IMG/VR virus record: IMGVR_UViG_3300042397_001782
Span: 1-64,000 of that record
Length of the DNA: 64,000 nt
Reading direction: 5' to 3' (one strand)
Origin: a virus
This document shows, piece after piece, positions 6,724 through 24,565 of this stretch. A program made the translations under genes and the position numbers. The notes beneath the pieces are model-generated. The model searched no databases and was not told the origin of the DNA. It saw only the letters and a program-made list of their open reading frames with translations. Within the stretch, counting starts at the first letter, position 1. Each line of letters starts with the position of its first letter.

Positions 6724-6724
6724 A

Positions 6725-9700
6725 ATGGGAAATTTAAAATTATTATATGATAAATTAAACAAAGCAAATGTTCAAGTACCAGATTATAATACTTTTGAAC
6801 AAAAGTATGGTAATGATAAGGGACTTGAAATATTACATTCAAAATTAAATAATGCCAATATATTGGTACCAAATATTGCGGAATTTAAATCTAAATACTC
6901 TAATACTTTAACAAATCAACAAACTCCTATACAACAAACCACGGTAACTCCTAAGAAAGAAGAGCCAGGTTTTTTTGAAGGAGTTAAAACTTTCTTGTTT
7001 GGAGATGAGGAAAAAAAACCTAAAGTAGAACTTATTAGTGAAAAGTTTGAAGAGCCGAATTTAAACCCTGAAACTCCCTATCCTTTCACTAAAACAACTC
7101 CTATAACTGTACTAGATAAAGAATATGCCCAAAAAATAAAAGCAGTAGAGGATAAGTATAATAAGTTACAGGAAGACCCTAGTAATTACGCTGCCTATAT
7201 TCCGAGTAGATTTGCTATTTTTGGGGCGGAACCATTAGTAAAAACATATAAAGTGGATTATACTAGACAAAAAGAACAAGAGATTTTAAATTTAAATGCA
7301 GAAAAACTTAGAAGAGAGGGTAGGAATTTAACTCCTATAGAACAAGAGCAAGATATTATAAATTATAAAAATAAAATTCAAGCAAATAAAACAACGATTG
7401 AAACCAGAGCTAAGGAGAAAAAGAGTTATTTAGCTGAATTAAGTAAAGAAGATAAAACTGATAGTCCTAATTTTATTTCAAGCTGGAAGAAAGTAATAAA
7501 CACAGTTAAAAATACATGGGATTATAATACAAAAGTAGATGACGATATTTCAAAAGCAGAGACCCTTAAAAATGTGAATCAAAAGTTTTTGGATTATGTA
7601 GAAAAAGGAGTTAATCCTTTTAAAAATGCACCTTATAATGACGCAGAAGCAATGAAAAAAGCGGGTTCATATATTGACCCATCTATAGAATCTGGGTCTA
7701 AAAAAGCCAGAGAAAAAATAGGGGAAATTACCACAAAATGGTTCCCGACAGCGGAAATAAAAGAAGATGATAAAAAATGGGGTACGCTTGATTATTTGAC
7801 GGTTATATGGAATCCTTTGATAGCTTTAGCCGCAAAAAAGATAAAGACAGAAAAGTTTACAAACCTAACTGCAGAACAATTAGAAAGAGAAGCTATAGAG
7901 AAAGCATATAACCTGGCTGCTAACAACTTAGATAATAGTCTAACTCCGTTATATGATAAAATACAGTCTGAAATTGGTATACCTAAGTCGGAAGTAATCG
8001 GAAAAATAGACACATATTTGACTGCAAAAAAGCAGGTGGAAGAAGGTGCCTACCCAAATATAGGTAAGTTATCAGAAAATGATATAAAACTATTTAATAA
8101 TCCTGATTTTCAGAATATAGCAGATACTTATAGTAAATCTGCTATTACTCCAATACGGGAGGGTAAATGGAGATTGTTATCTTTGGCTAACGTAGATCTT
8201 TATAATCAAGAAAAAGCCAATGCTTTTGGGACCCTAAATAAAGTAGAAAATATAGGAAGAAAAGAAGCAATCCGCACAGCTATATTAGATAAAAATGTAG
8301 AAGAACAGGGTGTTTTATCTAAAGCAGGGTTTGATAAAGCGTTGTATAATACTGCTTGGACTGCATTAAAAGCGGGGGATTTTACCGCAAACCAAACAGC
8401 GGCTGCCGCTCAAATAGCTACTCAATTAGCCACAGCCCCTTTTAGAGGAGGGGAGGCTTATACTCCTGAGTGGACTGAAAATATTATAAATAATACTGAT
8501 TTATTTGATAATTTAACTCAGCAAGATAGTCACTTTAAACTATCTATATTTAAAGACGATAAATATATTGACAGAACATTGCCTACGGGAGATATAGTAA
8601 AGGTTCAATATACTCCTGAAGGTGATATATTAAATGCTTTTGGTGGGGGTATGGAATATACAATCAATAATCCAGAAGTAATGAAATGGCTTGCAAATGA
8701 TTTTGAGACAAACAAAGACGAAATATTGGCAAACGGTAAATCTTTGTGGGAAACTGATGGTGGAAAAGCAGTATTTTTAGAGAATGTTTGGAATAGTATG
8801 GCTCCAGAAATAGTGGAGGAAATGCCATCTTTGTTAGTAGGAGCAGGAGCAGGTAAAATTGCAGGAGCATTAATAAAAGGAGCGTCTAAGGAGAGAAGAT
8901 TAAGGTTAGCTAAAGGAGCTGAGTTTATGATTAATGTTGGCACTAACATGACAGAGCAATATCCTTCCATATACAAGAAATATCAAGAAGCTGCACAGGA
9001 CAAAGACAATCCTTTTCCTGCATTAGCTACTTCTGGTGCTTTGGCATTAGGAACATTGCTCACATCTACCTTACAAAGTAAAGCAATAGGATTAACAGGG
9101 AATGATATAAATAAGGTGATAATGCCTGAAGCTATCGAAGCTACTGCTGAAGCAGTGAAAATCATTAACAAAGAATTTGCTAAAATTCCTAATATAACTT
9201 TAAGAGAAAAGTTAACTAATGCCGCTATTAACAAAGTAATGTTTCAGAATATTATGTCTTCATCGGGAAGATTCTTAAAAAGAACTGGAAGAGTGGGAGC
9301 AGAAGAAGCTACAGAAGAAGTTGTATTAGAGCCTCTTATTAATGTTGCAGCTAATTTTATTAATGAAAAAATAACAGGAGATAAAGCATATAACCAAGAA
9401 ACTTTAAAGGATTTGAATTTTTTAAATCCAGATGTGGCAATAACTTCTTTTTTAACAGGTGGTACATTATCTACAGGAATGGATTTAGTTAAATCTATGT
9501 CAACTAAAGGTCCTTTTTCCAAAGAAGATTATTTAAAAACAGCTTTTGAAAATGAAGCTACTTTTACTTCTATGGTGGATATTATGACTCAGAGTGGTAA
9601 TAATAAATTTTCTGAAGCAGACCAAGCAAAAATGATGACTGATTATAACGCATTAAAAGCCTCTTATAATGCAAGAAAATCAGAACTTGGAGTTAATGAT

Positions 9701-12700
9701 GAAGCTTTAGCTACCTTAAACTTTGCAAATCCTGTAATAAAAGGATTTGTAAAGTCTATTGGAGAGACAGAACAAAGTTTAGACAAAATTAATAGCGGGA
9801 GAACTTTTGATAATGCTATTATCAGACAAAGTTTAAATGAAAGAGAATTAGCTGAAAAGAAAATTGCTTTAGATGAAGAAGCTGCTAAAGGAAATATCTC
9901 TGTTTCCCCTGAAGGTACTTATAAAATAGTTGGTAGCAATCCTCTCTCCCAAGAATTAGGTAAACAAATTAGTGAGTATGAGCAACTTCAATTAAGTAAT
10001 AACAATTTAACTTCCTTTATAGATACTTTTAACAAAGAAACTAAGCCTGTACAAAAGCAATATATACAAGAGTTAAATCAAGTTACTTCTGAAGCTCCTG
10101 ACCTTATAAGAGCAAGAAATAGTAAGGAAGGTAGTTATGCGTATAAAGCAGTAAGCAGTGCCATTATGGATAAACAAATGGCTATGAGCCAATTGGAACA
10201 AGTAAACGCTGAGATAGAAACCGCTAAGATAGATGGGACAGATACCCAAGAATTACAAGTAAAAAAGCAAAATTTAGAGAAAGCTATTAAGACTAGTGAT
10301 GAAACTATCAATACTTTAAAGAAGCAATATAAAGCAGGTAGGTTTGATACGCAAAACGAGACCATAGATAGGTTTAATGAGTTTAGAACTGCTAGTTTTG
10401 TATTACAAGAGAAAATACAATCTATGGCAGGAGTAGATGCCACTGATGAAGAGATTGAGCAAAGTGAAATCAATGATGCTTATGCTGATTATTTAGATGC
10501 ATATAACGCTTTGGAAAAATCAAACTCTACCTTGAAAAAAGAATATGGAGTGGAAGTATTCGACTCTAAAGAAGCTCCTATTAGTTTGGAACAATTCCAA
10601 GCTTTTAAAAGTAATATTAAAGAAAAAAACGCACTTTCTAAAAAATTAGCAGAAAATAAAGGTACTTTAGGTGATGTAGGAAGATTGATAGGTCTTGAAT
10701 ATACTACAGGTACAAAACAACCTAAAGACAGAGTACAAGTTACTGCTCCTAAAAATAAGGAAGATATAAAAGCTATTTTAGATGATAAGGAACAAGTGTA
10801 TGAGTATGCAAAAAGATTAGGATTTAATAAGAAAAAGTCTTATGCTCAAACCAAAAAAGCAGTGAGAACTTATTTAAATAAACAACTGTCTACTCAAGAT
10901 GAAACACGTTTAGAGGGAGTTTCTGCTGTTTTTGTTGAAAAAACCCCTAGACAAGTGAATGGTAATCCTATGTTTGAGGTTGAAGGTGCTTTATACAAAC
11001 CTGCTGGATATAGTGTTTCTCCAACTATGATGACTCAAGAAGAAAGAAATACGGTATTGACAAATGCAGTTATTAGTGAAATAGCTAAACAAGTATTTAA
11101 CAATTCATTATTACTAACGCCTTATAATGTATCTCAGATAATAAACAAAGTTATTATTGAATCTGGGTTTGATACAGAAGTAGGTATTGATAATAGAAGT
11201 TTACAATTTATAGCAGAAACAATATTAGCATTAAAAGCAGATTTAGATGCAAAAGGATTTGCTTATAAGTTTAATGATGATGTAGTTATTTCAAAGCTTT
11301 CTGAAGATGAAGTAAGAGGCTATGATGGCATAGCTACCACTCCTATATTGACAGTGGTTGATAATGAAGGAAATGTACACTTAATTGATTTTAAATCTTT
11401 TTCAGCAGGTAACTATGCTGCGTCAGCTTCAGGGTGGTCTAATAGCCTCACTGAAATACAAGCTATTTTCCAAGATAATGGAATAACAGTGGCTTCTATA
11501 AATGTTTTGCCTATTAGAGTGGATAATACTTCTACAACTCAAAATGGATTAACTAATTTAAGTATTGGTAAAAATAGTTTTAATACAATTCCTAATAATG
11601 ATAATGCTATTAGTAGAACATTATTGCAGCTTGCAACTAGCACTCCAATATTAACTACTTTGAAAGAAGAAGGGCTGTTAACCCAAGAAGAGGTAGAGTC
11701 ATTTGATGAAATTCCTTTAGATGAGGCAGATGCCCCTATAACCCCTGCGGATAAATTGAAAGAAGATTCTTTGGTAGTACTTGAACCAGAAACTCCTACA
11801 ACAACAGAGGTTCCTGTTACTGTTACGGAAAAAAACATGAAAGCAGAAGATAAAAATAAAGCCACTAAAGATACTCCTAAAGAGGTAATAGAGGAAGAAA
11901 CCCCTGAAGGAGTATTTGCTGGTTTAGGAAAAGGTGTCTATATCCAAGTTAAAGAAACTAGTGGAGGCTTCTATATGATAACAATATTTGGGGATACTGA
12001 TCTTGCGAATAAGTACGGAAAGAAAAGAAAGTCTTTAGAAGACGTGAGAGCTATATACAAGGCTAACAATTGGTTTGCTCCAAAAACTTTTGAAGGTACA
12101 GGCGTATATCAATTAAGATACGCTGATACACTAACCCCTGTACTATCTAAAAATTATGTTGAATTTGTGCAACCTAATGGATTCAGCGAAGTAATTAATG
12201 ATGTTGCAGTGGCTGCGGATATTATTGGTACAGAAGTAGAAATAGTGGAGAATAATGAAAATGGGAATAATGATAAGGATGAGGTACAAAAAGACTTTAA
12301 AAACAAAGCTTCTTTATCTATTGTAAATGCAAATGGTGAAAAAATTGCAATGGTTCCGCCTAATTCTCCTTTAAGAGAAAATCTAAAAATCTCTAATAAA
12401 AAAGGACTTAATAGACTAGAGCCTACAATTGCTACAATAAAAGATATAAAATTTAACAACTTTAATAGAAAACCTTATGAATTGTTCTCTGAATGGGAGA
12501 AAAAGGCACTAGCCTCTGGAGTATTAGTTCCAGGAGAGTATGAAATGGTTTATATTGGGGTGGAAAACGGGACACCTGTATTTAAAAATCAAAATGGAGT
12601 AGTAGTGCCTGGCAGAGTTCCTAAGAACCCAAAATTAGGTTCTGCTTATCTTCTTATAACTAATTTCCCCACTAAGAATATCATGATACCAATGGGTACT

Positions 12701-13243
12701 CCTAAACTAGCTGAATTAGGATATACCATACAAGACTTAAAAACATTACTTGCTTTAATTGATATAAATGAACTTACTAAAAATGAGGCTAATGCTGAAA
12801 GTATTTATACTAATTTTATAGGACAGTTAGATGCACTTGTTAGAGATGGCAAATTAAAAGACCCTAAATTAAAAGATTTACAATTTTTACTTTCTAGTGA
12901 ATTAGGTGGACAAGAATTGACTTTAAGAGCATCTTCAACTCAATTGAACATAGATAAATTAGATGCAATTGACATTTATAAAGATAAAGAAGATAAGGAA
13001 GGTGTTTTAATAAGCTTTCTTTTAGATAGAATTATCACTATGAATGATGAGACTTTAGGGAGTCATAAAATAGATGTAAATCCTGAGATACTTTTTGCTG
13101 ATAATGCTTTAGTATTAGACAATATAAAAGCTAAACCCACTCCTAAAAATAAAAGAGTTAAATTACAGGCATTATCTGATGAAGACTTCTTAAATTTAGC
13201 AACCTCAAAAGGAATGGTGCAAATAAATCCTGAATGTCTATAA
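6725..13243 (+). CDS. Giant putative ejected virion protein with hydrophobic segments and a degenerate PD-(D/E)XK-like domain
   Basis: 2172 aa; GAEEATEE motif among Gly/Ala-rich hydrophobic helices; VVDNEGNVHLIDFKS; the only Cys is penultimate. Confidence 0.65.
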   Translation: MGNLKLLYDKLNKANVQVPDYNTFEQKYGNDKGLEILHSKLNNANILVPNIAEFKSKYSNTLTNQQTPIQQTTVTPKKEEPGFFEGVKTFLFGDEEKKPKVELISEKFEEPNLNPETPYPFTKTTPITVLDKEYAQKIKAVEDKYNKLQEDPSNYAAYIPSRFAIFGAEPLVKTYKVDYTRQKEQEILNLNAEKLRREGRNLTPIEQEQDIINYKNKIQANKTTIETRAKEKKSYLAELSKEDKTDSPNFISSWKKVINTVKNTWDYNTKVDDDISKAETLKNVNQKFLDYVEKGVNPFKNAPYNDAEAMKKAGSYIDPSIESGSKKAREKIGEITTKWFPTAEIKEDDKKWGTLDYLTVIWNPLIALAAKKIKTEKFTNLTAEQLEREAIEKAYNLAANNLDNSLTPLYDKIQSEIGIPKSEVIGKIDTYLTAKKQVEEGAYPNIGKLSENDIKLFNNPDFQNIADTYSKSAITPIREGKWRLLSLANVDLYNQEKANAFGTLNKVENIGRKEAIRTAILDKNVEEQGVLSKAGFDKALYNTAWTALKAGDFTANQTAAAAQIATQLATAPFRGGEAYTPEWTENIINNTDLFDNLTQQDSHFKLSIFKDDKYIDRTLPTGDIVKVQYTPEGDILNAFGGGMEYTINNPEVMKWLANDFETNKDEILANGKSLWETDGGKAVFLENVWNSMAPEIVEEMPSLLVGAGAGKIAGALIKGASKERRLRLAKGAEFMINVGTNMTEQYPSIYKKYQEAAQDKDNPFPALATSGALALGTLLTSTLQSKAIGLTGNDINKVIMPEAIEATAEAVKIINKEFAKIPNITLREKLTNAAINKVMFQNIMSSSGRFLKRTGRVGAEEATEEVVLEPLINVAANFINEKITGDKAYNQETLKDLNFLNPDVAITSFLTGGTLSTGMDLVKSMSTKGPFSKEDYLKTAFENEATFTSMVDIMTQSGNNKFSEADQAKMMTDYNALKASYNARKSELGVNDEALATLNFANPVIKGFVKSIGETEQSLDKINSGRTFDNAIIRQSLNERELAEKKIALDEEAAKGNISVSPEGTYKIVGSNPLSQELGKQISEYEQLQLSNNNLTSFIDTFNKETKPVQKQYIQELNQVTSEAPDLIRARNSKEGSYAYKAVSSAIMDKQMAMSQLEQVNAEIETAKIDGTDTQELQVKKQNLEKAIKTSDETINTLKKQYKAGRFDTQNETIDRFNEFRTASFVLQEKIQSMAGVDATDEEIEQSEINDAYADYLDAYNALEKSNSTLKKEYGVEVFDSKEAPISLEQFQAFKSNIKEKNALSKKLAENKGTLGDVGRLIGLEYTTGTKQPKDRVQVTAPKNKEDIKAILDDKEQVYEYAKRLGFNKKKSYAQTKKAVRTYLNKQLSTQDETRLEGVSAVFVEKTPRQVNGNPMFEVEGALYKPAGYSVSPTMMTQEERNTVLTNAVISEIAKQVFNNSLLLTPYNVSQIINKVIIESGFDTEVGIDNRSLQFIAETILALKADLDAKGFAYKFNDDVVISKLSEDEVRGYDGIATTPILTVVDNEGNVHLIDFKSFSAGNYAASASGWSNSLTEIQAIFQDNGITVASINVLPIRVDNTSTTQNGLTNLSIGKNSFNTIPNNDNAISRTLLQLATSTPILTTLKEEGLLTQEEVESFDEIPLDEADAPITPADKLKEDSLVVLEPETPTTTEVPVTVTEKNMKAEDKNKATKDTPKEVIEEETPEGVFAGLGKGVYIQVKETSGGFYMITIFGDTDLANKYGKKRKSLEDVRAIYKANNWFAPKTFEGTGVYQLRYADTLTPVLSKNYVEFVQPNGFSEVINDVAVAADIIGTEVEIVENNENGNNDKDEVQKDFKNKASLSIVNANGEKIAMVPPNSPLRENLKISNKKGLNRLEPTIATIKDIKFNNFNRKPYELFSEWEKKALASGVLVPGEYEMVYIGVENGTPVFKNQNGVVVPGRVPKNPKLGSAYLLITNFPTKNIMIPMGTPKLAELGYTIQDLKTLLALIDINELTKNEANAESIYTNFIGQLDALVRDGKLKDPKLKDLQFLLSSELGGQELTLRASSTQLNIDKLDAIDIYKDKEDKEGVLISFLLDRIITMNDETLGSHKIDVNPEILFADNALVLDNIKAKPTPKNKRVKLQALSDEDFLNLATSKGMVQINPECL

Positions 13244-13279
13244 AAAATTTATTATTTTTACAATTTAAAACACACAAGA

Positions 13280-14533
13280 ATGGCTTGTTATATATATAAA
13301 GGAAACACATATACAAAAGAAGAATTATTAGCAATTAAAAATCAAATTATTGCTGAGAATGAAGCTGTATTTAATCAAATGGGTTCAGAGGCTTTAAATG
13401 ATATAAATGTCCTTGTAGACCAATTAGTTAAAGGAGGATTGGCAGAAGAAGTTATAGTGGGAAATACACAAACTCTTTTAGATGTATTAGATGAGGAAGG
13501 AGCTTCTGAAGGATTAAAGCAACAAGTCCAACAAGGTCCTGAAAGACAAATAATTCTTAATGGTCAAGGAGTAACAGTGAGAACTTTCCCTGAAGATGTA
13601 TCTGTAATAAACGGATTTTATTCTCCAATAGAAAAAAGACTAGCAGAAACTAAGATTGATAAACAATCAGCAAATAAATGGGTGTCAGTTATAGGCAAAG
13701 GAGATGAAGCAACTTGGACAGGAGTAAAAGCGTGGCTTGAAGAAAAGAACCCACAAGAGCAAGTAACCAAATCTGAAATTCAGCAATGGATGAAAGATAA
13801 TAGGATTAGTGTTGTGGAAGTGGTGAAAGGGAAAACAGAATGGAGCGAGGTAAAAAAAGGCAGATGGGAAAGACCTATTGATAAAGAAAACTTACAAGGA
13901 AGAAAAACGGCAGGTAAAGTTGTTATTCAATTAATTGATGGCAAGTATTACGGTGAGCCAAGCACAACAAAATATACAAGAGTATTTAATAGCTTAGAAG
14001 AAGCACAATCTTATTATGACGGAGTTGATGGGTTTAGCACAGACACCAAATTCTCTAAGTGGCAACTAGAAGGAGAAAAAGAAAACTACAAAGAGGTGTT
14101 GGTTACGATGCCGAATGTAACAAAGCAAAGAATGCCCGAAGGTTTTTCAGTAGTTTCAAAAAGCGAGTATAAAGGAGCAAGTGAATGGACACCTAACTTT
14201 GTTGTCATAGATAAAGACGGAGTGAGTATTGTTGGTGGGAAAACCAAAGAAGCAGCATTAGATACGTTTTTTAAAACTTACGCACCTGTTTCCGAAAGTA
14301 GAGTAAACTTTAAATCAGGGCATTGGGATGAACCCAACATACTTGTTCATTTAAGAATGAATACTCGAACAGATGCAGAAGGAAATAAAGTATTGTTTTT
14401 GGAAGAGGTGCAATCAGATTTTTCTGCTGCATATCGTAAATCACAAGAAGAGGTTATGAATTTTATTAGTAAAAATGAAGGGGATGTTATTGAATTATAC
14501 AAAAAAAGCGGTAAATTAGAGGTAGAATGTTAG
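13280..14533 (+). CDS. Large polyvalent protein, N-terminal part of a split gene
   Basis: GFYSPIE...HWDEPNILVHLRMNTR...LFLEEVQSD looks like the first half of a domain that continues at 15218; starts MAC and ends EC. Confidence 0.7.
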   Translation: MACYIYKGNTYTKEELLAIKNQIIAENEAVFNQMGSEALNDINVLVDQLVKGGLAEEVIVGNTQTLLDVLDEEGASEGLKQQVQQGPERQIILNGQGVTVRTFPEDVSVINGFYSPIEKRLAETKIDKQSANKWVSVIGKGDEATWTGVKAWLEEKNPQEQVTKSEIQQWMKDNRISVVEVVKGKTEWSEVKKGRWERPIDKENLQGRKTAGKVVIQLIDGKYYGEPSTTKYTRVFNSLEEAQSYYDGVDGFSTDTKFSKWQLEGEKENYKEVLVTMPNVTKQRMPEGFSVVSKSEYKGASEWTPNFVVIDKDGVSIVGGKTKEAALDTFFKTYAPVSESRVNFKSGHWDEPNILVHLRMNTRTDAEGNKVLFLEEVQSDFSAAYRKSQEEVMNFISKNEGDVIELYKKSGKLEVEC

Positions 14534-15331
14534 AAAGTAAATTTTACATATATCGTCACATACGCCCTGATACCAATGAAGTATTTTACATCGGTAAAGG
14601 GAATAATATTAATCCAAAAAAAACTTTATACGAAAGAATGAATATTGTCAAAAAAAGAAATAAAATATGGCAGTCAATTGTATTAAAGAACAATGGCGTT
14701 TTTAAATCAGAAATACTTTTTGAATGTGAAACGGAAGAAAAATGTAATGCAAAAGAAATTGAGTTTATAGAATTGTATGGAAGAAAAGATTTGAATAACG
14801 GAACTTTGGCTAATTTAACAAGCGGTGGAGATGGAAGTTTGGGCATAATAACAAAGCAAGAAAAGAGGGATAAGTTAAGTTTAAAATTTAAAGGAGAAGC
14901 ACATCCTAATTTCGGCAAAAAACTTTCAAAAGAAACTTGTATGAAAAAGTCTGAATCAATGAAAAATTCAGATAAAAATTTAAAAGGGAAAAAATTACCT
15001 GAATGGTGGAAAGACAAAATAAGACAAACAAAATTTGGGGCTAACAATCCAATGTTTGGTAAAAAATCACATTTAGCGAAAGCGGTTATAGATATAGTGA
15101 CAGGAATTGAATACCACTCTATAATGGAAGCAGCAAAATCAACGCCTTATAAATTTCAATACGTTTCGGCAATGTTAAAAGGAACAAAAACTAATAAAAC
15201 TAATTTAAGATATAAAGATGGCTTGTAAATATAAAATAAACGGACTAGAATTAACAAAAGACGAGTTTTTAAACTATGTTAAAAAACAGCCATTAGAAGA
15301 ATCGGCTAAAATATTAGGTATTTCAACAACA
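14423..15331 (+). mobile_element. Homing-endonuclease cassette splitting the polyvalent gene (approximate bounds)
   Basis: Lies between EEVQSDF and PAAPF; flanking ORFs share a frame; endonuclease ORF overlaps both neighbours. Confidence 0.6.
14527..15228 (+). CDS. GIY-YIG homing endonuclease with NUMOD3 repeats and a C-terminal NUMOD1-like HTH
   Basis: YIYRH...FYIGKG...R...E...NLTSGGDG; HPNFGKKLSKET and NPMFGKK repeats; EYHSIMEAAK. Confidence 0.88.
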   Translation: MLESKFYIYRHIRPDTNEVFYIGKGNNINPKKTLYERMNIVKKRNKIWQSIVLKNNGVFKSEILFECETEEKCNAKEIEFIELYGRKDLNNGTLANLTSGGDGSLGIITKQEKRDKLSLKFKGEAHPNFGKKLSKETCMKKSESMKNSDKNLKGKKLPEWWKDKIRQTKFGANNPMFGKKSHLAKAVIDIVTGIEYHSIMEAAKSTPYKFQYVSAMLKGTKTNKTNLRYKDGL

Positions 15332-17467
15332 CCTGCGGCACCTTTTATTACCGATACTAATAATTATGTGAAGCTCGGATTGCGTGTAGCCCTTAAAGAA
15401 TCAGTAAAACAAGGTGCTGATAAAATTGCATGGGCTACTGGGGAGCAACAGAATGATAGGTATTCTCTTGAAAAACAAGTTGATGAGCTTAAAGTAAAAA
15501 AACAAACCGATGGGGCTTATTCAATTTATGGATATAAAGACGGTAATAGTGTTATCGAGCATAACGATGTTCCCGAAAATAAAATAGAAGCATATATTGG
15601 TAAAGAAATAGCATCTAAAGTTATTAATGAAGGACAAACAAGTTTTGAAGGAGATGACCTTAAACTTGGAGGTAAAGGCATGAAAGGCTTTTACGGCTCA
15701 CCAACAGAAGGAAGTTTAGGGATAGTAGGAAATGTAGCAAAGAGTTTGTTTAAGCAAGAGGTTGGAACGGTGGAGATAAAATTATCAGATTCAGCTCCAT
15801 CAAATGAAGTTTATTTTAATGATTGGAAAGTTGTTGGTTATATTGGGAAATTCCCACAATGGATAGCCGAATTAGATGACATAACTTATGAGATAGGCAC
15901 AAGTGATGGCATTAAATATACACTATGGCGTGGCGAAGAAAAGGTTGGGGTATTTAATAGTGTAAAACAAGCACAAGATGCGGCAAGTGGCACAGAAACG
16001 GGCATAACTTCCGCCCAACACTCCATAGACATAACACCTGAACTAAAATCACAAGTAGAAGAAGGATTACCTTTATTCCAAAAAGAACCTGTTAAACTAA
16101 TCCCAACAGGATTTGTAAAAGGAAAAAAAGTATATATAAATTCAGATGTAGCTACAATAGAAACTCCTATACACGAATTTGCTCATTTATATAATGCTTG
16201 GTTAAAAGAAAACAAAGTTGAATTATATAACAGAGGTTTGGAATTAGTGAGAGCAGAGTTAGATAAGAAAAACTCTCCAATACAATCTGTAATAGATTAT
16301 GTAAAATCAACACAACCTAATCTACAAGGAGAAGCTTTACAAGAAGAAATTCTTACACAATTAACAGGTAAAAAAGGACTAGAACTATTACAGTCTAAAA
16401 AGAAAGGCGGAATTATTAATTGGATAAAAGAAGCATTAGCAGAAATAGCTAATATGTTAGGATTGTCAAATTATTCTGTTGAACAAGCAATGAATATGAC
16501 AATAGATGAATTTGCTAAGGCTATTGCTGTTGATTTGTTACAAGGACAAAAACCAATAGGAATAACAGTAGAAGAAGCTATTAAACGTAATAACGGAAAT
16601 CCTTTAAATCTGGCACCAAATGGAAACCCTTCTATTTTATACCAATCATATAAAGATTTAGGATATTTTGATAATGAAGCAGAGAGATTTACGGCACAAA
16701 CGTTTAGTAATGAGTTTAAAACATGGTTTGGAGATTGGCAAAATGATGCTGAAAATGCTAGTAAAGTGATGGATGAAAATGGTCAGCCAAAACTAATGTA
16801 TCACGAAACAGCAGCGGATTGGTTTATATACGACAAAACAAAAATAGAGGCGGGTAAACTTGATTCAGTTACACCTACTGGTATATTTTTAAAATCTTCT
16901 AATAAAAATATTGGCTTAGGAAACAGACAAATGAATTTGTTTTCGAGTATAAAAAATCCGATTTATGCAAAAGATAGAAAAGAATTAGAAAATTTCTTTA
17001 GTTTAAATATTAAAGGGTACTCTGAAATTAAAGAAAAATCATCTCAAGTTGAAAAAGAATACGATAAAATACTAGAAAAAGAAGGTCCAAGACTTAAAGA
17101 AGCTTTTAAAAAAGAAATAGAAGATTTTAAAGGAGAACTTACAAGTGAAGATAGGATTAAATTAGTAGAAAAAGTTTATAAAAATTCTGACACAGAATTA
17201 AACGATTTGGAAGTAGAATTTGAAAATTTAGCCATAGAGGCAAAAGCATTGATTGATTCATTTATGAAAGATTCAAACTATGATGGGATATTCTTAACTT
17301 CAGATGTTGGAAGTAAAGGAAGAGAAACAGATGCTACAATAGCTATGAATCCTGAACAAATAAAATCAGCTACAGGAAACATAGGAACATTTAGCCCTAC
17401 AAATGCTGACATTAGATTTCAAACAATACCAACAGAAGAAACCACTACAATTCCTGACTGTGTCTAG
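15218..17467 (+). CDS. Large polyvalent protein, C-terminal part: zincin metallopeptidase (MPTase) plus ADP-ribosyltransferase-like (ART-PolyVal) domain
   Basis: VYINSD...TPIHEFAH (HExxH); FKTWFGDW...SKVMDENGQPKLMYH...YDGI...PEQIKSATGNIGTF...DIRFQ; starts MAC and ends DCV. Confidence 0.75.
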   Translation: MACKYKINGLELTKDEFLNYVKKQPLEESAKILGISTTPAAPFITDTNNYVKLGLRVALKESVKQGADKIAWATGEQQNDRYSLEKQVDELKVKKQTDGAYSIYGYKDGNSVIEHNDVPENKIEAYIGKEIASKVINEGQTSFEGDDLKLGGKGMKGFYGSPTEGSLGIVGNVAKSLFKQEVGTVEIKLSDSAPSNEVYFNDWKVVGYIGKFPQWIAELDDITYEIGTSDGIKYTLWRGEEKVGVFNSVKQAQDAASGTETGITSAQHSIDITPELKSQVEEGLPLFQKEPVKLIPTGFVKGKKVYINSDVATIETPIHEFAHLYNAWLKENKVELYNRGLELVRAELDKKNSPIQSVIDYVKSTQPNLQGEALQEEILTQLTGKKGLELLQSKKKGGIINWIKEALAEIANMLGLSNYSVEQAMNMTIDEFAKAIAVDLLQGQKPIGITVEEAIKRNNGNPLNLAPNGNPSILYQSYKDLGYFDNEAERFTAQTFSNEFKTWFGDWQNDAENASKVMDENGQPKLMYHETAADWFIYDKTKIEAGKLDSVTPTGIFLKSSNKNIGLGNRQMNLFSSIKNPIYAKDRKELENFFSLNIKGYSEIKEKSSQVEKEYDKILEKEGPRLKEAFKKEIEDFKGELTSEDRIKLVEKVYKNSDTELNDLEVEFENLAIEAKALIDSFMKDSNYDGIFLTSDVGSKGRETDATIAMNPEQIKSATGNIGTFSPTNADIRFQTIPTEETTTIPDCV

Positions 17468-17519
17468 GAACTAAATACCCAAAATAATTGTTAAAAAAGG
17501 GAAATTAAAAATTATTACT

Positions 17520-17527
17520 TACTTTTG
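17520..17527 (+). promoter_or_regulatory. Bacteroidota -7 promoter element
   Basis: TACTTTTG matches TAnnTTTG, upstream of 17583. Confidence 0.45.
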
Positions 17528-17530
17528 TAT

Positions 17531-17564
17531 TGTTTCCCCTCCTTTTGGTAGGGAAACATTTTTT
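17531..17564 (+). terminator. Hairpin with U-tract
   Basis: tgtttccc...gggaaaca followed by tttttt. Confidence 0.5.
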
Positions 17565-17582
17565 ATAAAATAAATATAATAT

Positions 17583-20500
17583 ATGGCTAAGTGCTCATTA
17601 CCTTATGTAGAAAAAAGATTTAGAGAAAGTAACCCTCAATTAGCGGATAAGCTTAATGATATTGGCTTAAAGGTATTTGAAGATATTTCTAATTCAACCC
17701 TATTTGACAGAAAAGAGGGTAATTTTGTATTTAACGAAGAAGGCACTGAAGAAAGAAACTCTCAGAATGACTTTGTCACTAAATTAAATACAGATTTAGG
17801 GGCAGAAGTAGTAAGAGAAGTAGAAAAAAAAGTAAGTGTAAATGTATTGCCTTTAGTTACAGAAGAAGATTTGAGGACTGGTTCTCAAATTGCAAGCCAA
17901 GTTAACCCTGCATTAAGAGATGTAGAGAGTACGGCTAAAGATATTGAATCAAAAAGAATAGCAACTGACGCTAAGATTAAGCGTAAAGATTTATTTGATG
18001 GTGTAGGTGAATTTTCAACTCAATTGGGAGGTAGCGATAAAGCTGCTGTTCCTATATCTCATAAAGAAAAAAACGGAATTGAGATTGTTGAGTATGCTCA
18101 TCCCGAAACAGGCAGTGTAGATGTTATAGTTACAGGGAAATCAGATAATGACTTTGTTGGATTTTATCGTATTTACGAAAATGGAAAGCCTACAAATAAG
18201 TGGAGTTCAAAGTTTGAAAATCAATCAAGAAATAAAGATGATTTTAAAACAATGATAAGTGGTATTCAGGAAATGCTACCAGCAGGACACGAATACACCG
18301 AGAAAACATCTATATCTACTGATGGATTAAGAATATGGAATCAACAATTAAATCGTGGGTATGAATTACAATATGATGAAAATGGAAAATTAAAGACAAA
18401 TAGAGTTTTTATAAACGGAGATGCTATTGTTAATGAGTTAGGGATACCTGTTGAAAAAGGAGATTTTGAAAAAATAAAGGTAAAAACAAGAGAAGATTTT
18501 GAAAAGGTGAAAGCAAAACTTTTGCCTTACTTAGAAAAATTTGGATTAGACGAAAGTAGTATAAAATGGATTTCAGGGAATGTTGAAATTACTCCACAAA
18601 ACGAAAAGGCGTTTGCATCAACAGCATCAGTAAAAATAGATTTACCTGTATTAAAGAAATCAGAATCCCTACTATCTAAAGAACAATTACCTGCATTGGA
18701 AGATGTAGAAGAATTTAAATCTTCAGAAGAGCTACCCGACTCTTTTTTAACATTATCGGATTTTGAAGAACCTGCATACACTCCTACAACTCCAGAGACA
18801 CACCCTGAAAGAGTAGCACCATTAGCACCCGAGCCAATGAAGTCTATCCCTCAACAGTGGGAAGAATATACTAACTTAAAAGATAGAACAGATTTAACCC
18901 CTGATGAAGAATTAGATTTAGCTGTTTATAGAGCTAAGTTTGATATGTTTGATAGCCCTTCTCAGTATGAGAAAGTTATGTCAGACCCTACACCTAAAGC
19001 TTTTGTTTCTTTTAGAGAAAAGAATTTAGAAAAATTATTACTTAGCTTTGCTGACAAATTTGGTATCACAATTGCCAATATTGAAGATTTTCAAAAACAA
19101 TACTTTGAAAAGACAGGTAAATTTATACCTGCTAATGGTGTAGCTAATTTGTTTGAAAAAGTTATCTATGTTTCTGAAGGAAATACAGATGCTCTTACCG
19201 AAGAGGTGGCCCACTTTATTATAGCTATGTTGCCTAAAGATGGGGAGCTTTACCAAAACTTAAAGCAATACATCTCAAGAACAAGAGAATATGAGTTGTT
19301 TTATGACAAGTATTTAGCTCAATATGACGGAGATGTAGATAAAACCGAAGAAGAGATAATGGGTAAAGTATTTAAAAATGCTTTACAAGATAAAGAAGAA
19401 ACGGTGCCGTTATCAGTTAGATCTGTAGTAAAAAGAATTATAAACTATATTTCTGATTTATTTTCAGATGATAAAATGGAATACTTAAATTCCTTAAATC
19501 AGTTGAAGAAAATGTTTTTCAGTGAAAATTTAGCAGAAGGATTGGATGCTGCTAATATAAATTATGACGAACTATACCAATTAAATTTCGAGATTACAGG
19601 AAAGGAAACCGATGCTGTTTTAAAGGAAAGATCTGATAAATTTAATTTAGGTGCAAATCTCCTTATAGAGAACCTAGAGGATACTCTTTCTAATATTAGA
19701 CAACAAGCTATAGAGTCTAACCAGACTGAAGCTTTAAGGTCTTCTAATTATTTGTTAAGTATATTAGGTAAAAAAACTGAGCAAGATGCAGATAAAGCAA
19801 AGATTTTATCTAGTATGGTGTTTTCTTCCGTTGCTACTATAAGACGTTTACAAGGTTCTTTCAATGAATTTGATAAGTTAAATATACCTAAAACATTAGA
19901 AACAGATTTTAATAGAGATAATTTAATTAAGTTAAGCTATGATGACTATAATAAATCATTGTCAAAATTAGCGAGTTATATAAATTATTTACAATCTTTA
20001 TACTCTCTTTCAAAATCAATAGAAAGCACTTCCAAATTAATGAAGTTAGAGTCTAATGATATGATTGCATTTAAAAAAATTATTTATGATTTAGACCCAT
20101 CAATAACAGAGAACGATGAAATCATAAAAGCTTTCGATTTATTAGATGGGGAGGGAGTTAAGGTTATGGCTGCAAAGATAGAAAGCATTTATCTTAAAAA
20201 TGTAAAACAAATTTTAGATATTTATATGTCTGCTTTGAATACAGAAGACCAAAAAAGATTTTTAAATTATCAAAATGAAGTTGATTTTGCTAATACAGAT
20301 GCAAAAACTATTGCAGATAAAAATAATAATATAATAGACTATTCTAAAGGAATATTTAGCAATATAAAAAGTTTATTTAGCAAAGGAATTACTCCTGTAA
20401 CCATGCAAAATGATACATTTATACAGAGTGTAGATAGATTTGTATCGGCTATGGAGCAAATGGGAAAAGAAAGAGCTTCTAAGGAAGTTGCGGAAGTTCA

Positions 20501-23500
20501 AAAAATTGAAAATAGATTATATCAAAATGGGGCTAACGCTCAGAATCAAGATTGGCTTTCAGAAAAAGATGATAAAGGGAGGTCTACGGGCAACTTAATA
20601 ACTAAGTTAAATTTCTCTAAATACGCCAATTTAGCTGCAAAAAATCTAAAAGATAAATTGCGTAATTTACCTTTTGCTAGTAATGCCCAAATCCAAGGCT
20701 TACAAAAAATAGCATTTAACTCTCCTAAACAAGTATTTGATTCTCTTGGAGAATTATTAAAAGATAATAAAATAACTCAAGAAGAATTTGACCATGCAAA
20801 AAATTATTTAATGGCTGAAAAAGCTTTATATGATTTAGAGCATACAAATCCAAATTATACTTCCACTACACTAAGTAACAATAGTTTAGATGCGTTAAGA
20901 AACTATATTGACAGAAATATAGTAAATGTTAGAGAAGCATTAAATGATCCAAACTTTGATTGGACAAATGATGAAATAGAACTTATTTCTGATGACTTTG
21001 GGGATTTGGAATCTGCTCTGGAAGAGTTAATAGCCGAAAAAAGAGCATTATTAGAAGAAAAATATTTTACTGTAGATGAAGATAAAAGAGTTCTGCTAAA
21101 AGCAGATGGTACTCCTGACTTAGACAAAAATGGTAATGAAAAATTAAACCCTATTTATAAAACTGAACTTGATTTTGTAGAAGGACTTCTAAATAAATAT
21201 AAGTATAAAATAGGGTATGCTACAGATACTGATGGAAATTTTTATCCTGATAAGATAAACATAGATGTATGGGGGGATGAATTTTTGTTTGAATTATCCG
21301 ACTCTCACCCTGATGCTAAAGAATACGCCAACAAAGAGTACTTAGACATAGAAGAGAAGGCTGCAAAAGGAGATGCTCTAGCTGTGGCAAAGATGGACAT
21401 GGTTAACTACATTAAAAAATGGAATAAACAAAATAACCTTCCTTCTAATTTCTTACCTAAAGGATCTAAAAAAGACTCTGAATATTTACAAATGTTCGGT
21501 AACAAAAGATTTATAAATATCTTTGGAGTAAATTTTGATGTAGCTAAAATAATTACTCAAGTAGTAATTCCTTTTGCAGGAGTGGCAAACACTCCTATGT
21601 TATTTGGAATAGCGGCAGGACTAGTCAATCCTTTGACACTAGCAGTATCTTCTACGGTTTTTTCATATTTCTTCTGGAATAGAATATCCAATCAAGCTGT
21701 TAAATTTGCATCAATATATGTAGATACTTATGGAAGAATAAATGATACTAAAGGGTTAAAGAGATTTGCAGTTGCTTTAGCTAAGTCACTAGGGGTATAT
21801 AACAAGGCTTTACAGTTTGAATTAAATAAAGACGATAATATTATTAGTACAGGAGACCCTGAAAAGTCAGAATCTGTGATAAGTAAAAGGGTAGACCTTT
21901 GGCTAAAGAATATGTTTCATAAGATTTTTCGTGCTGTAGATGCAAAACAAGCTAATAAGAAAAACAAAATAGATGTTATTCCTAGAAAATATACAGAATA
22001 TATTGAACCAGCTTTACGTTCCACCCAATACTTAGATAATTTTAAATCTTTCATATACGCCAATAAAGAGTATGAAAATAAATCTATGTATGAAGGAGCT
22101 ATAAGAGCTATGAATGATTTATATAGAAAAAGAGAGGATAAAGAAGGAAATATTATTGGAGACGATTATTTAGAGGCTATTTACATTGATAGATATTGGT
22201 ATAATAAAATATATCCAAATTCTTTTGCAATGAAATTTATTAGAGTGCTGGCAGCTCAAACAGGTTTCAACCAATTGACTGGTAATCTTAATACGGGTGT
22301 AAAGAATATTCTTACAGGTATTAGTATGATTTCAGCCAATGGTGGGTTATTAGCTACTATGCCTGCTATAAAAGATGCTACAATATACTCTCTTAATATG
22401 CTTTTATTAGCAAAAGGGAATAATTCAAGGGTAGCTCTTGAGCAAAATAAAATTCAAATGATTAAAAAACATTTGAGATCAAGTAGTTTTGGTGGCATTG
22501 TTGATTTTGATTATTCTGATTCTTCATTGGTACAAAAATTAAGGCTGAATGACGGAAAAATAGTAAGTGAGTTAGGAGAGTCTTTTATTAGTAGTGTTCT
22601 TGTATATAAATTTTTAAGAGACACAAAACTAATAGATGAGAATGGTAAAAAAATTGACATTATTAAGCATCTAATCATAAAAGATGGAAGGCTTTCTTTT
22701 GATGACAAGGTTGCTAAAAAAATATATTTCAATAATATTAATGAAATACAAAACGCAGAAGACCTACAACTAGATCCTGGATATGTAAAAGATATTAATC
22801 TAAGGGCAATTGTACCTAAAAATCTACAGAAAGAGGCTTTAGTGCCTTTAGAAATAGATTTCTACCTTAATAGAACATTGCTACAAAATATAGATTATTT
22901 TAGACAAAGGTCTCAGGGTGTTTATAATATATTGTTAAAACCTAGAGTATCCACTACTGCCATTGGTACCGCTTTATTTATGTATCAGCACTATGTATTA
23001 CCTGGAGTATATACAGCATTCGGGAGAAAGAAAAATAATCCAAACTTAGAAGGTAGTGAAGAAGGATTTATAATTACACTGGCTAAAGCATTAAAAAGAG
23101 GAGTTATTACAAATAGATTTAAAGATAAACTATCCCCTGATAGTGTCAATAATATTATGAGACTAAATAATATTAAAACAAAAGGATTGTTAGAAGACTT
23201 GGGAGTATTATCAAATGTATTTTTATATTTCTCAAAAAATAAAAATATAGTTACACAATCTTTATTAGAAGCTGCAGAATCACAAGAAAAAGCAATAAAA
23301 TTTGCAGAAGAACAAGATGCAATTGTAGCTCAAGGGGGAGAGAGAAAAGAAGGCCCAGCTTATTATGCAGGATTTAAGGGTAAAACTAAAGAAGAAATCT
23401 TTAAAGAATTATTGATAGAAGCCAATAAGCAACAGAGATTGAATCAATATGAAGCAGATAACTATAAAAAAGTGGCGAGCATTTTAGCTATGTATCTTCT

Positions 23501-24113
23501 TTTAAAGGCTGCATTGAAATTTGTCTACCCGCCTCTAGAGGAGGAAGAAGTTGCTACATACATGGCTTCTGTAACTGAAGTTGTATCAAGTGAACTTTTG
23601 AGAACTTGGGTTCCTTTTTTAGAAGGAAGACTTGGATTTTCTTGGAATTTAAACCCAGTGGGAATAAAAGCCAACGAAGGCTCAATTGGCTTTGATTTAA
23701 GAAAAATCTCCCCTATTGCAGGTACTGTAGATGATTTAGCTAAAAATATGTACTGGTCTGGATCTGTTGGCTTATATAAATTAACAGGGGTAGTGCCATT
23801 TTCACAAGAGTATGGTAAAAAATTAATGGATGTAACAGGGGGAGAAATTCCTTTGATGAAAACAAAATACTACTATGATAAAGAGGGGTATGTTACGAGG
23901 GAAGTTAATGTATTGGATGAAACCGTAAAAGACTTCTTGATAGGAAATAGACTTAGAGACGCTATGCAAAGTAGCGAATTAAGAAGAGATAAATATAATG
24001 AATTAGGTATACCTCAAGGTGAACTAGCAAATATGATTTACAAGTTGAGAAATGGTTACTACAAAGCTTATGGTAGAAACTTAGAAGAAGAAATAAAAGT
24101 TTCTCAAGAATAA
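17583..24113 (+). CDS. Giant putative ejected virion protein with a GNAT-like insert, an inactive MPTase-like domain and hydrophobic segments
   Basis: 2176 aa; EEVAH in place of HExxH; the C-terminal QGVY...GTALFMYQHY...FG...EG region resembles giant proteins of crAss-like phages (from memory); the only Cys is at position 4. Confidence 0.65.
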   Translation: MAKCSLPYVEKRFRESNPQLADKLNDIGLKVFEDISNSTLFDRKEGNFVFNEEGTEERNSQNDFVTKLNTDLGAEVVREVEKKVSVNVLPLVTEEDLRTGSQIASQVNPALRDVESTAKDIESKRIATDAKIKRKDLFDGVGEFSTQLGGSDKAAVPISHKEKNGIEIVEYAHPETGSVDVIVTGKSDNDFVGFYRIYENGKPTNKWSSKFENQSRNKDDFKTMISGIQEMLPAGHEYTEKTSISTDGLRIWNQQLNRGYELQYDENGKLKTNRVFINGDAIVNELGIPVEKGDFEKIKVKTREDFEKVKAKLLPYLEKFGLDESSIKWISGNVEITPQNEKAFASTASVKIDLPVLKKSESLLSKEQLPALEDVEEFKSSEELPDSFLTLSDFEEPAYTPTTPETHPERVAPLAPEPMKSIPQQWEEYTNLKDRTDLTPDEELDLAVYRAKFDMFDSPSQYEKVMSDPTPKAFVSFREKNLEKLLLSFADKFGITIANIEDFQKQYFEKTGKFIPANGVANLFEKVIYVSEGNTDALTEEVAHFIIAMLPKDGELYQNLKQYISRTREYELFYDKYLAQYDGDVDKTEEEIMGKVFKNALQDKEETVPLSVRSVVKRIINYISDLFSDDKMEYLNSLNQLKKMFFSENLAEGLDAANINYDELYQLNFEITGKETDAVLKERSDKFNLGANLLIENLEDTLSNIRQQAIESNQTEALRSSNYLLSILGKKTEQDADKAKILSSMVFSSVATIRRLQGSFNEFDKLNIPKTLETDFNRDNLIKLSYDDYNKSLSKLASYINYLQSLYSLSKSIESTSKLMKLESNDMIAFKKIIYDLDPSITENDEIIKAFDLLDGEGVKVMAAKIESIYLKNVKQILDIYMSALNTEDQKRFLNYQNEVDFANTDAKTIADKNNNIIDYSKGIFSNIKSLFSKGITPVTMQNDTFIQSVDRFVSAMEQMGKERASKEVAEVQKIENRLYQNGANAQNQDWLSEKDDKGRSTGNLITKLNFSKYANLAAKNLKDKLRNLPFASNAQIQGLQKIAFNSPKQVFDSLGELLKDNKITQEEFDHAKNYLMAEKALYDLEHTNPNYTSTTLSNNSLDALRNYIDRNIVNVREALNDPNFDWTNDEIELISDDFGDLESALEELIAEKRALLEEKYFTVDEDKRVLLKADGTPDLDKNGNEKLNPIYKTELDFVEGLLNKYKYKIGYATDTDGNFYPDKINIDVWGDEFLFELSDSHPDAKEYANKEYLDIEEKAAKGDALAVAKMDMVNYIKKWNKQNNLPSNFLPKGSKKDSEYLQMFGNKRFINIFGVNFDVAKIITQVVIPFAGVANTPMLFGIAAGLVNPLTLAVSSTVFSYFFWNRISNQAVKFASIYVDTYGRINDTKGLKRFAVALAKSLGVYNKALQFELNKDDNIISTGDPEKSESVISKRVDLWLKNMFHKIFRAVDAKQANKKNKIDVIPRKYTEYIEPALRSTQYLDNFKSFIYANKEYENKSMYEGAIRAMNDLYRKREDKEGNIIGDDYLEAIYIDRYWYNKIYPNSFAMKFIRVLAAQTGFNQLTGNLNTGVKNILTGISMISANGGLLATMPAIKDATIYSLNMLLLAKGNNSRVALEQNKIQMIKKHLRSSSFGGIVDFDYSDSSLVQKLRLNDGKIVSELGESFISSVLVYKFLRDTKLIDENGKKIDIIKHLIIKDGRLSFDDKVAKKIYFNNINEIQNAEDLQLDPGYVKDINLRAIVPKNLQKEALVPLEIDFYLNRTLLQNIDYFRQRSQGVYNILLKPRVSTTAIGTALFMYQHYVLPGVYTAFGRKKNNPNLEGSEEGFIITLAKALKRGVITNRFKDKLSPDSVNNIMRLNNIKTKGLLEDLGVLSNVFLYFSKNKNIVTQSLLEAAESQEKAIKFAEEQDAIVAQGGERKEGPAYYAGFKGKTKEEIFKELLIEANKQQRLNQYEADNYKKVASILAMYLLLKAALKFVYPPLEEEEVATYMASVTEVVSSELLRTWVPFLEGRLGFSWNLNPVGIKANEGSIGFDLRKISPIAGTVDDLAKNMYWSGSVGLYKLTGVVPFSQEYGKKLMDVTGGEIPLMKTKYYYDKEGYVTREVNVLDETVKDFLIGNRLRDAMQSSELRRDKYNELGIPQGELANMIYKLRNGYYKAYGRNLEEEIKVSQE
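17907..18709 (+). repeat. Imperfect 20 bp direct repeats flanking an in-frame 783 bp module
   Basis: cctgcattaagagatgtaga (17907) and cctgcattggaagatgtaga (18690), 17/20 identical; PALRDVE and PALEDVE. Confidence 0.6.
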
Positions 24114-24116
24114 TAT

Positions 24117-24147
24117 AAAAAGCCTCTCCGTTAAGAGAGGCTTTTTT
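24117..24147. terminator. Bidirectional intrinsic terminator between convergent modules
   Basis: aaaaagcctctc-cgttaa-gagaggcttttt. Confidence 0.9.
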
Positions 24148-24191
24148 ATTTACCATAATTCATCTTCTATTAGAAGATTCGTATAAAAAAA

Positions 24192-24545
24192 TTAATCTTC
24201 TTGGAAGGTTCTATCTCTATATTCATCTCCCTCCGATGAATCATTTAAAGAACTTTCTATATAATTTTCATCATATTTATTCTTTTCTAATTCATCAATA
24301 AAATTCCATACTTCAAAGCAAAATTCATTAAAGTCTTGAATATCAATAAAATCTTTACTCATTTCTACTTCTTCATTAGTATCAATATTATAGCCACTAT
24401 TCCAATATAGGGTAACATCAATTGTTTTTGATAAGTTATTATAATAAGCAAAGGCTTTTACATTTAATTTAGGGTCTAATCCTTTATGTAGATTTATAAT
24501 TGCTTCTGCAGCACCTTCTAATTTAAATTTTAAATAATCTTTCAT
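24192..24545 (-). CDS. Hypothetical acidic protein
   Basis: 117 aa ORF in the - strand gene run. Confidence 0.6.
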   Translation of the reverse strand: MKDYLKFKLEGAAEAIINLHKGLDPKLNVKAFAYYNNLSKTIDVTLYWNSGYNIDTNEEVEMSKDFIDIQDFNEFCFEVWNFIDELEKNKYDENYIESSLNDSSEGDEYRDRTFQED

Positions 24546-24565
24546 TTGTTTAATTTTTTGTTAAG

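Follow-up and report, generated by a model that had tools for sequence, protein, structure and literature searches.

Why should four large proteins, encoded one after another in a phage genome, carry cysteines solely at the ends by which they face one another? This question is raised by a block of genes in positions 1-64,000 of IMGVR_UViG_3300042397_001782, an IMG/VR phage record of 119,980 bp; this whole stretch of 64,000 nucleotides is called the window throughout. The proteins in question, of 2172, 417, 749 and 2176 amino acids, are referred to here as chain proteins 1 to 4, and the places where one of them ends and the next begins as junctions 1 to 3. A reading made from the sequence alone (hereafter the sequence-only reading) had proposed that their ends are docking modules which join separately translated proteins head to tail. 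We followed this idea through related loci, and it appears probable to us that the four genes encode pieces of a single cysteine-purged string, packaged and injected, whose parts are disulfide-linked head to tail through terminal modules, here called the C-tip and the N-tip.

Cysteines are confined to the facing ends of the chain proteins

Translation gave six cysteines in all in the four chain proteins, each at most four residues from one of the facing termini, and every coordinate that the sequence-only reading had assigned to them proved right. Cys 2171 of chain protein 1 stands one residue ahead of the stop, the cysteine codons of chain protein 2 are at 13286 and 14528, and those of chain protein 3 are at 15224 and 17459. 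The two cysteine codons of a junction are 51, 696 and 133 nt apart at junctions 1, 2 and 3, respectively, with a spacer of 36 nt at junction 1 and of 115 nt at junction 3. The three open reading frames (ORFs) upstream (826/859, 913 and 469 amino acids) contain no cysteine at all, as had also been stated, while the other 40 ORFs of the window contain 118 in 9,368 amino acids (1.26%). About 97 cysteines would thus be expected in the cysteine-poor block of 7,722 amino acids, where 6 are observed (Poisson P ~7e-34), and the probability that six randomly placed cysteines all fall within four residues of the six inner termini is ~7e-15.

One element of the earlier picture, in which chain proteins 2 and 3 were products of neighbouring genes, had to be abandoned. 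The cysteine pairs of the four-protein chain stand, but an ORF for a 233-amino-acid endonuclease lies between these two genes, its ATG overlapping the upstream cysteine codon and its stop overlapping the downstream one.

Terminal cysteines are strictly paired in related loci

Related loci were fetched with the 417-amino-acid protein (17 loci) and with an alignment of the conserved domain (80 loci), and 82 sources were analysed: the window, L006 and L019-L098, the other loci of L001-L017 being on contigs represented again among the 80. As junctions we took pairs of consecutive plus-strand ORFs, each of at least 200 amino acids and with at most 0.3% cysteine, that were separated by no more than 1600 nt; ORFs that were nested or truncated were left out. 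A cysteine was counted as terminal when it lay in the last 6 residues of the upstream product or in the first 8 residues of the downstream one. Co-occurrence of a C-terminal cysteine with an N-terminal cysteine of the next gene had been named in the sequence-only reading as the feature to look for in relatives, and it was found without exception: among 151 junctions, 15 have both cysteines, 136 have neither, and none has a cysteine on one side only (Fisher P 5.5e-21, uncorrected for relatedness). Junctions 1 and 2 of the window and the junction of L031, which lie outside these filters, also fit the pairing rule, which brings the number of tipped junctions to 18. Moreover, a prospective scan of viral contigs by the N-tip alone, with a three-sequence alignment as the query, yielded seven new contigs (five distinct), and in all seven the giant protein encoded upstream ends in a sole cysteine.

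In the 82 sources, the 89 ORFs of at least 1500 amino acids contain 74 cysteines in 274,548 amino acids (0.027%), 24 of these being terminal, as compared to 0.68% in the other ORFs, and 42 of the 89 have no cysteine. Unsplit giants of 3,500-4,900 amino acids have neither cysteines nor tips. Single internal cysteines which do occur in unsplit giants were considered as possible fused tips, and this was rejected for lack of any resemblance to tips. Two apparent splits without cysteines, in L020 (8873-9755) and L036 (9807-10433), turned out to be plain frameshifts, with homologous sequence running on in another frame. These frameshifts interrupt the giants inside conserved motifs, and both a sequencing error and a real pseudogene are possible.

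Tips are specialised end-modules of a wide family

Alignment of the 18 junctions yields two homologous tips. The C-tip, of about 30 amino acids, consists of an amphipathic stretch of the N-F-x-D-I-x-x-x-L type, a G or N turn, the cysteine and then 0-3 residues. The N-tip, of about 40 amino acids, begins with M, 1-4 residues and C, followed by x-h-x-Y-x-G-K-x-Y-S-x-x-E-F-x-x-x-L-x-x-G-L-L-D, and in every downstream ORF the ATG precedes the cysteine by 1-5 codons. The flanking sequence shared by two of the window's junctions, to which the sequence-only reading had drawn attention, is real and forms part of this wider tip family. Profiles of both tips match only the termini of split proteins, the best internal match in unsplit giants being no better than an independent E-value (iE) of 0.2; the tips are thus not pieces of a domain cut by chance. 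The docking-module interpretation is supported in so far as the termini are specialised, conserved end-modules and no leftovers of a split domain. Weak N-tip matches were also seen near the C-end of the cysteine-free protein of ~460-570 amino acids encoded directly upstream of the first giant in L050 (2949-4655, residues 491-509, iE 0.0012) and in L068 (2069-3448, residues 431-443, iE 0.017).

When 1.84 billion representative proteins were compared exhaustively with the N-tip profile (A2), 254 clusters were obtained at E<=1e-3. The best 150 of them were examined and six were dropped (five internal repeats and one match at residues 36-70); in the other 144 the tip occupies residues 1-40, and the gene calls start at its Met. 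The cysteine is residue 2 in one protein, residue 3 in 66, residue 4 in 17, residue 5 in 59 and residue 6 in one. These 144 proteins have 28 internal cysteines in 134,708 amino acids, and among the 98 that are at least 300 amino acids long, 67 have no other cysteine and 17 have one more at the very C-end. Chain proteins 2 and 3 display the same layout, both being in the profile seed; the start of chain protein 4 (MAKC) is a divergent member whose score proves nothing, as it belongs to the training set of the profile. One member of the family, P0129, combines the N-tip of junction 1 (90% identity) with the C-end of junction 3 (96%) around a different middle, and has cysteines only at 3 and 1265. 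Another protein, P0101 (145 amino acids), is a tandem array of a 15-residue unit, P-C-V-Y-S-Y-R-G-V-N-L-S, which resembles the N-tip start; it has 14 cysteines and may be either a repeat artefact or a distinct protein.

From an alignment of 33 N-tip proteins, AlphaFold2 predicted a beta-hairpin (residues 6-9 and 12-15) followed by a helix (16-33), with a predicted local distance difference test score (pLDDT) of 81-89. Comparison of this model with PDB by Foldseek gave nothing at E<=0.001, the motif being too small. P0132, a natural protein of 125 amino acids with little beyond an N-tip, a linker and a C-tip, was predicted with a pLDDT of 72-84 in the tips, a C-tip helix reaching the end and a disordered middle (predicted template modelling score 0.27), a prediction that carries no contact information. 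The assumption that the C-tip ends in a strand was dropped, a helix being predicted instead in the subtype represented by P0132. A docking prediction between the last 80 amino acids of chain protein 1 and the first 80 of chain protein 2, run without controls, scored 0.10 (mark 0.34), a value that speaks neither for nor against docking.

Giant genes are broken at different places and other genes lie in the breaks

In all the other loci, the parts matching chain proteins 2 and 3 are contiguous in one giant. Residues ~90-380 of chain protein 2 and ~37-290 of chain protein 3 are the first and the second half of a domain which is continuous in relatives, and junction 2 interrupts it within a variable linker. 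In L068, where both tips are nearly as in the window and the endonuclease is 42% identical (69-72% identity for the DNA of the cassette), the break is before a conserved block (‘SSHFDE ... LFLEEVQSD’), while in the window it comes after that block; L034, a close relative of L068 (83-96% identical), has an unsplit protein of 3506 amino acids with neither tips nor cysteines. P0010 (119 amino acids) consists of an N-tip, this same conserved block (~45 amino acids) and a C-tip, so that one domain is encoded in three separate pieces and both break sites can be occupied at once. This block of ~45 amino acids can hardly act unless it is re-joined. As the tips are self-contained, a giant gene is breakable at different places, and other genes can sit inside the break.

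Among 25 junctions, a ferritin-like gene (PF00210) is nested in 18 (L023-L025, L027, L031, L035, L049, L050, L056, L058, L062, L100, L102 and L104-L108), an endonuclease gene in two, and nothing in five. The ferritin-like genes between tipped genes encode 155-167 amino acids, are often also rubrerythrin-like and often have conserved cysteines near residues 36 and 120. Such a gene is also found behind the unsplit giants of L022 and L038; the genome of the window has none. In the junction of L031 (the L012 contig, 12208-14055 in L012), a gene for a 257-amino-acid endonuclease VII-like protein (phrog_1035) is nested together with the ferritin-like one.

The endonuclease of junction 2 could be thought of as the carrier of the tips. 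Its relatives were found in 80 loci, with 74 readable contexts, and both cysteine tips occur only in the L068 contig, a cysteine being present only upstream in 2 contexts and only downstream in 6. We thus rejected this idea, and regard it as an ordinary free-standing endonuclease which sits in a junction; movement of tips and endonuclease as a unit may still be considered, as suggested by two contigs only. Furthermore, the giant encoded in L086 (5450-13551), otherwise cysteine-free, contains at residues ~2340-2650 a cysteine-rich intein-like stretch (C-L-T-E-N-G-W start), which means that inteins also invade these genes.

The chain proteins may be linked into one string

Five observations are consistent with the proposal that the four genes encode pieces of one string: how the cysteines are distributed, how strictly they are paired, the existence of tip families, the variation in break sites and the lack of cysteines in unsplit relatives. 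In this scenario, the break between two pieces would be bridged by a conserved pair consisting of a C-tip (~30 residues) and an N-tip (~40 residues). The tips would dock, and their two cysteines, being the only thiols available, would form an interchain disulfide in the virion once conditions allow, so that the pieces could be packed and threaded out as one string. Overhangs of 0-3 and 1-5 residues would keep the joint narrow, leaving a tiny side stub that passes a narrow ejection channel, the absence of other cysteines would prevent loops, and in the cytoplasm, a reducing environment, the bond would be undone. Docking, the disulfide, and packaging and ejection as a chain are what we infer here; stoichiometric packaging, ejection in gene order and release on reduction, as put forward in the sequence-only reading, are conjectures.

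A precedent for such a bond exists. Cryo-electron microscopy of cyanopodophage A4 revealed a disulfide between Cys1715 of gp27 and Cys5 of gp26, two adjacent pre-ejectosome proteins, the C-terminal helix of one ejection protein being inserted into the next and locked by the disulfide (PNAS 2025, PMC12002296). The earlier statement that a system of this kind had no existing description is thus wrong as far as this single link is concerned.

Several points weigh against the proposed string. The bond and the tip-tip contact in this phage family are deduced indirectly, and packaging of these particular proteins rests on gene context and on the annotation of distant relatives. The proteins of the window have no similarity to A4 gp27 and gp26 (BLASTP, E<=1e-3; tip profiles without a match), and A4 is therefore a precedent by analogy. 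The 151 junctions are phylogenetically non-independent, at least 16 sequence-distinct junction types being counted by eye. Some internal cysteine is found in 14 of the 98 longer N-tip proteins, and one C-tip subtype is predicted to be a plain long helix with no fold-back onto the N-tip.

It is also conceivable, even if somewhat doubtful, that the tips act as a portable connector which allows giants to be cut anywhere, that the tip-endonuclease-tip arrangement is a mobile gene splitter provided with re-joining ends of its own, and that the ferritin-like protein makes or guards the bond. If so, the pieces would be delivered as one disulfide-stitched thread, and the arrangement would be a splicing-free counterpart of the fractured genes that are known from split inteins. 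We offer this extension tentatively.

Other explanations of the paired cysteines

Could the thiols of docked tips hold iron or zinc, perhaps together with an acidic residue, in place of a disulfide, with the ferritin-like gene supplying or buffering the metal? The presence of that gene in 18 of 25 junctions would fit such a bridge, as would the D or E that stands directly before the C-tip cysteine in 10 of the 18 aligned junctions. However, a usual zinc or iron site requires more than two thiolates, and the tips have no conserved His or further cysteine. Besides, the window's genome lacks the ferritin-like gene despite its three junctions, seven junctions have no ferritin gene, and the solved A4 case is a disulfide (PMC12002296); we thus consider a metal bridge unlikely. 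We are similarly sceptical about the possibility that terminal cysteines bind or sense another partner, be it the portal, the inner surface of the capsid or a redox trigger of ejection, and co-occur because this partner is common to them. In its favour, Cys-Cys contact in the window's family is itself a supposition, and crAss001, a phage whose cargo must unfold partially to pass the tail, is known to have disulfides that join other parts of its virion. Such a role hardly agrees, however, with strict pairing across very different tips, with the absence of cysteines from both outermost termini of each chain, or with A4, in which the two cysteines bond each other (PMC12002296).

Joining of the pieces before or during translation, by an intron, an intein or a ribosome hopping from one cysteine codon to the other, might be suspected at junction 2, as the ORFs of chain proteins 2 and 3 are in the same frame and the endonuclease ORF spans from cysteine codon to cysteine codon, and at junction 1, where these codons are only 51 nt apart. 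We rejected all three possibilities, which we regard as very improbable and close to refuted. Rfam gave no match to a group I intron core in window positions 6000-25000 (E<=1), nor in L020, L036 and L068 (gathering score), and Pfam found no Hint or intein family in the eight proteins of the block (E<=0.01). Intein nucleophiles lie at the start of an N-intein of ~100 amino acids and just after a C-intein of ~35 amino acids, while the cysteines described here are followed by 0-3 residues at the C-end or preceded by 1-5 at the N-start. Bypassing of the T4 gene 60 type involves a short untranslated gap with matched take-off and landing codons and needs no independent start; here we find gaps of 51, 696 and 133 nt, complete genes (470-770 nt) nested in 20 of 25 junctions, and a conserved ATG 1-5 codons ahead of the cysteine in every downstream ORF, at which public gene calls begin in 144 of 150 relatives. 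The terminator-like hairpin and T-run in the spacer of junction 3 indicate as well that the proteins are made separately. Finally, the pairing might be due to chance, or be a by-product of low cysteine content and overlapping start and stop signals, since a TGN codon is unavoidable wherever an ATG overlaps the codon before it in that frame, which happens at the start of the endonuclease. Most junctions have no such overlap, though, and with a placement probability of ~7e-15 in the window alone, no one-sided case in 151 junctions and both cysteines in just the L068 contig among 74 ordinary contexts of related endonucleases, this explanation is refuted by the counts and has practically no chance of being correct.

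Possible consequences of linked cargo

Should these links exist, they would mean that a very large group of phages delivers its internal cargo as a thread of covalently joined proteins, arranged in the order of their genes; crAss-like phages with their virion RNA polymerase, Bacteroidota phages of freshwater and marine origin, and some cyanophages all belong to this group. This would bear on how several thousand protein residues can travel down a narrow tail and out of the capsid before the DNA does, and it would explain the extreme cysteine purge of the giants. It would also show how essential giant genes can tolerate homing endonucleases and other genes within them. A further gain would be small natural protein connectors that are redox-reversible and possibly orthogonal.

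Gene block and genome context

The features of the block are collected in Table 1. Chain protein 3 contains an ART-PolyVal domain (PF18760) at residues 519-725 (~16772-17392), with a Pfam score of 40.6 bits where the cut-off is 31.2. The search for functions of chain proteins 1 and 4 gave no Pfam, PHROG or PDB sequence match, and no RNA polymerase was detected among the window proteins by PDB sequence match. The annotations of distant relatives include structural protein, DarB-like and RNA-polymerase-associated, and this, together with the gene context, indicates that the block proteins are probably packaged and injected.

Table 1. Coordinates of the cysteine-poor gene block in the window
Feature	Position	Strand	Remarks
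3' part of a cysteine-free giant protein	1..2580	+	runs off the record start; 826/859 amino acids
913-amino-acid cysteine-free protein of the giant block	2570..5311	+	ORF, translation
469-amino-acid cysteine-free protein	5314..6723	+	junction with the following gene without cysteines
Chain protein 1, 2172 amino acids	6725..13243	+	sole Cys 2171, codon 13235-13237; C-tip, ~last 30 residues
Chain protein 2, 417 amino acids	13280..14533	+	N-tip MAC (Cys 3); C-tip ...KLEVEC (Cys 417, last residue)
Free-standing GIY-YIG/NUMOD3 homing endonuclease, 233 amino acids	14527..15228	+	three internal cysteines; nested exactly between the junction 2 cysteine codons
Chain protein 3, 749 amino acids	15218..17467	+	N-tip MACKYKING (Cys 3); C-end ...IPDCV (Cys 748)
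Terminator-like hairpin, then T-run	17531..17565	+	junction 3 spacer; -16 kcal/mol, z -3.75
Chain protein 4, 2176 amino acids	17583..24113	+	sole Cys 4 (MAKC), codon 17592; none at the C-end

To our knowledge, there is no cultured isolate of the window's phage. Positions 108,806-119,980 of the record (L112) are a diverged copy of window positions 1-11,500, with 52-95% amino-acid identity; the first 180 nt of the two end copies are 95% identical, and there is no other duplication elsewhere in the 119,980-bp record. The two ends of the record thus probably overlap, each coming from a different strain variant, with the genome itself being ~109 kb long; the ‘100% complete’ size is therefore likely too large. 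In the second copy, tail-fibre genes and a gene for a 1763-amino-acid virion structural protein (phrog_15100; 20 cysteines) lie upstream of the cysteine-free block, and this block includes a 1684-amino-acid homologue of the window's first, truncated ORF, again with no cysteine.

Downstream of the block, the gene of chain protein 4 is separated from the convergent minus-strand genes by a strong hairpin of 13 bp (24117-24146), which has T-runs on both strands. It is likely a bidirectional terminator, and weak Rfam small RNA matches at this place are probably due to it.

Comparison with known systems

The A4 pair resembles the window in that internal or ejection genes are adjacent and that one protein has its sole cysteine two residues from the C-end while the next has its sole cysteine at position 5. 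In the record of Anabaena phage A-4L, gp27 (1717 amino acids) and gp26 (1114 amino acids) contain one cysteine each, and gp29 contains none. The window likewise shows sole cysteines near the upstream C-end and near the downstream N-start, in adjacent same-strand genes that belong to the internal-protein block of a structural module. In contrast to the window, A4 has one link instead of three, with no gene nested in its junction. In the accessible part of the A4 paper, the bond is treated as a local stabiliser, with no report of a conserved rule, a tip family or a connection to gene splitting; genetic editing of A4 is reported there as an established procedure (PMC12002296).

The pattern was also found to be present in two other cultured phages. 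In the crAss-like Cellulophaga phage phi14:2, three consecutive giant virion proteins, gp078, gp077 and gp076, verified by mass spectrometry according to the notes of the record, have cysteines only at the ends facing each other, as in the window: at 1797 of 1797 residues in gp078, at 3 and 2179 of 2180 in gp077, and at 3 of 1421 in gp076. The start of gp077, MACKIENIKYKGKE, is a weak match to the N-tip profile (iE 0.0015). The junctions of phi14:2 have neither an endonuclease nor a ferritin gene, unlike the window and its relatives. As described in a preprint, gp077 is a 2180-amino-acid virion RNA polymerase, and in the text of this preprint that was available the word ‘cysteine’ occurs 0 times and no link is described (bioRxiv 10.1101/2020.03.07.982082). 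In Leptolyngbya phage Lbo-JY46, a 1552-amino-acid protein ends in its sole cysteine, and the 2748-amino-acid product of the next gene starts with MSNC and has the hairpin and helix motif, so that its sequence places it clearly within the tip family.

Giant mosaic multi-domain proteins encoded beside virion genes have been described as polyvalent proteins of phages and conjugative elements, for which cutting by built-in peptidases after delivery was proposed; in the portion of that article at hand, ‘cysteine’ and ‘disulfide’ have 0 occurrences (Iyer et al. 2017, PMC5512222). The window shares with them the giant multi-domain proteins, the virion gene neighbourhood and a conflict-type domain, ART-PolyVal in chain protein 3, but its problem is the reverse one, namely joining of pieces.

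Closer to junction 2 are the fractured genes in which split inteins flank a free-standing homing endonuclease gene, as far as the available text describes them (Dassa et al. 2009, PMC2677866). In both cases a gene is broken, an endonuclease gene lies in the break, end-modules would re-unite the products and a cysteine is at the joint; a homing endonuclease between the halves is found in the window at junction 2 only. Unlike split inteins, the tips have no Hint fold, are only ~30 and ~40 amino acids long and have their cysteines at the very chain ends. No splicing is expected, and the join would be a reversible disulfide with the tips staying in place.

In the literature searched, with supplements lying outside its scope (among them the supplementary figures of the A4 paper, which may bear on cysteine conservation), we found no general rule of terminal cysteines, no tip family and no description of the Lbo-JY46 proteins. 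Relative to this literature, the pairing rule, the 254-cluster tip family, multi-link chains, varied breaks with nested genes and the endonuclease cassette have not been described. One such link is already known, namely that in A4, and to it the window adds a tip family outside recognisable polymerase blocks, an endonuclease inside a junction and the association with ferritin.

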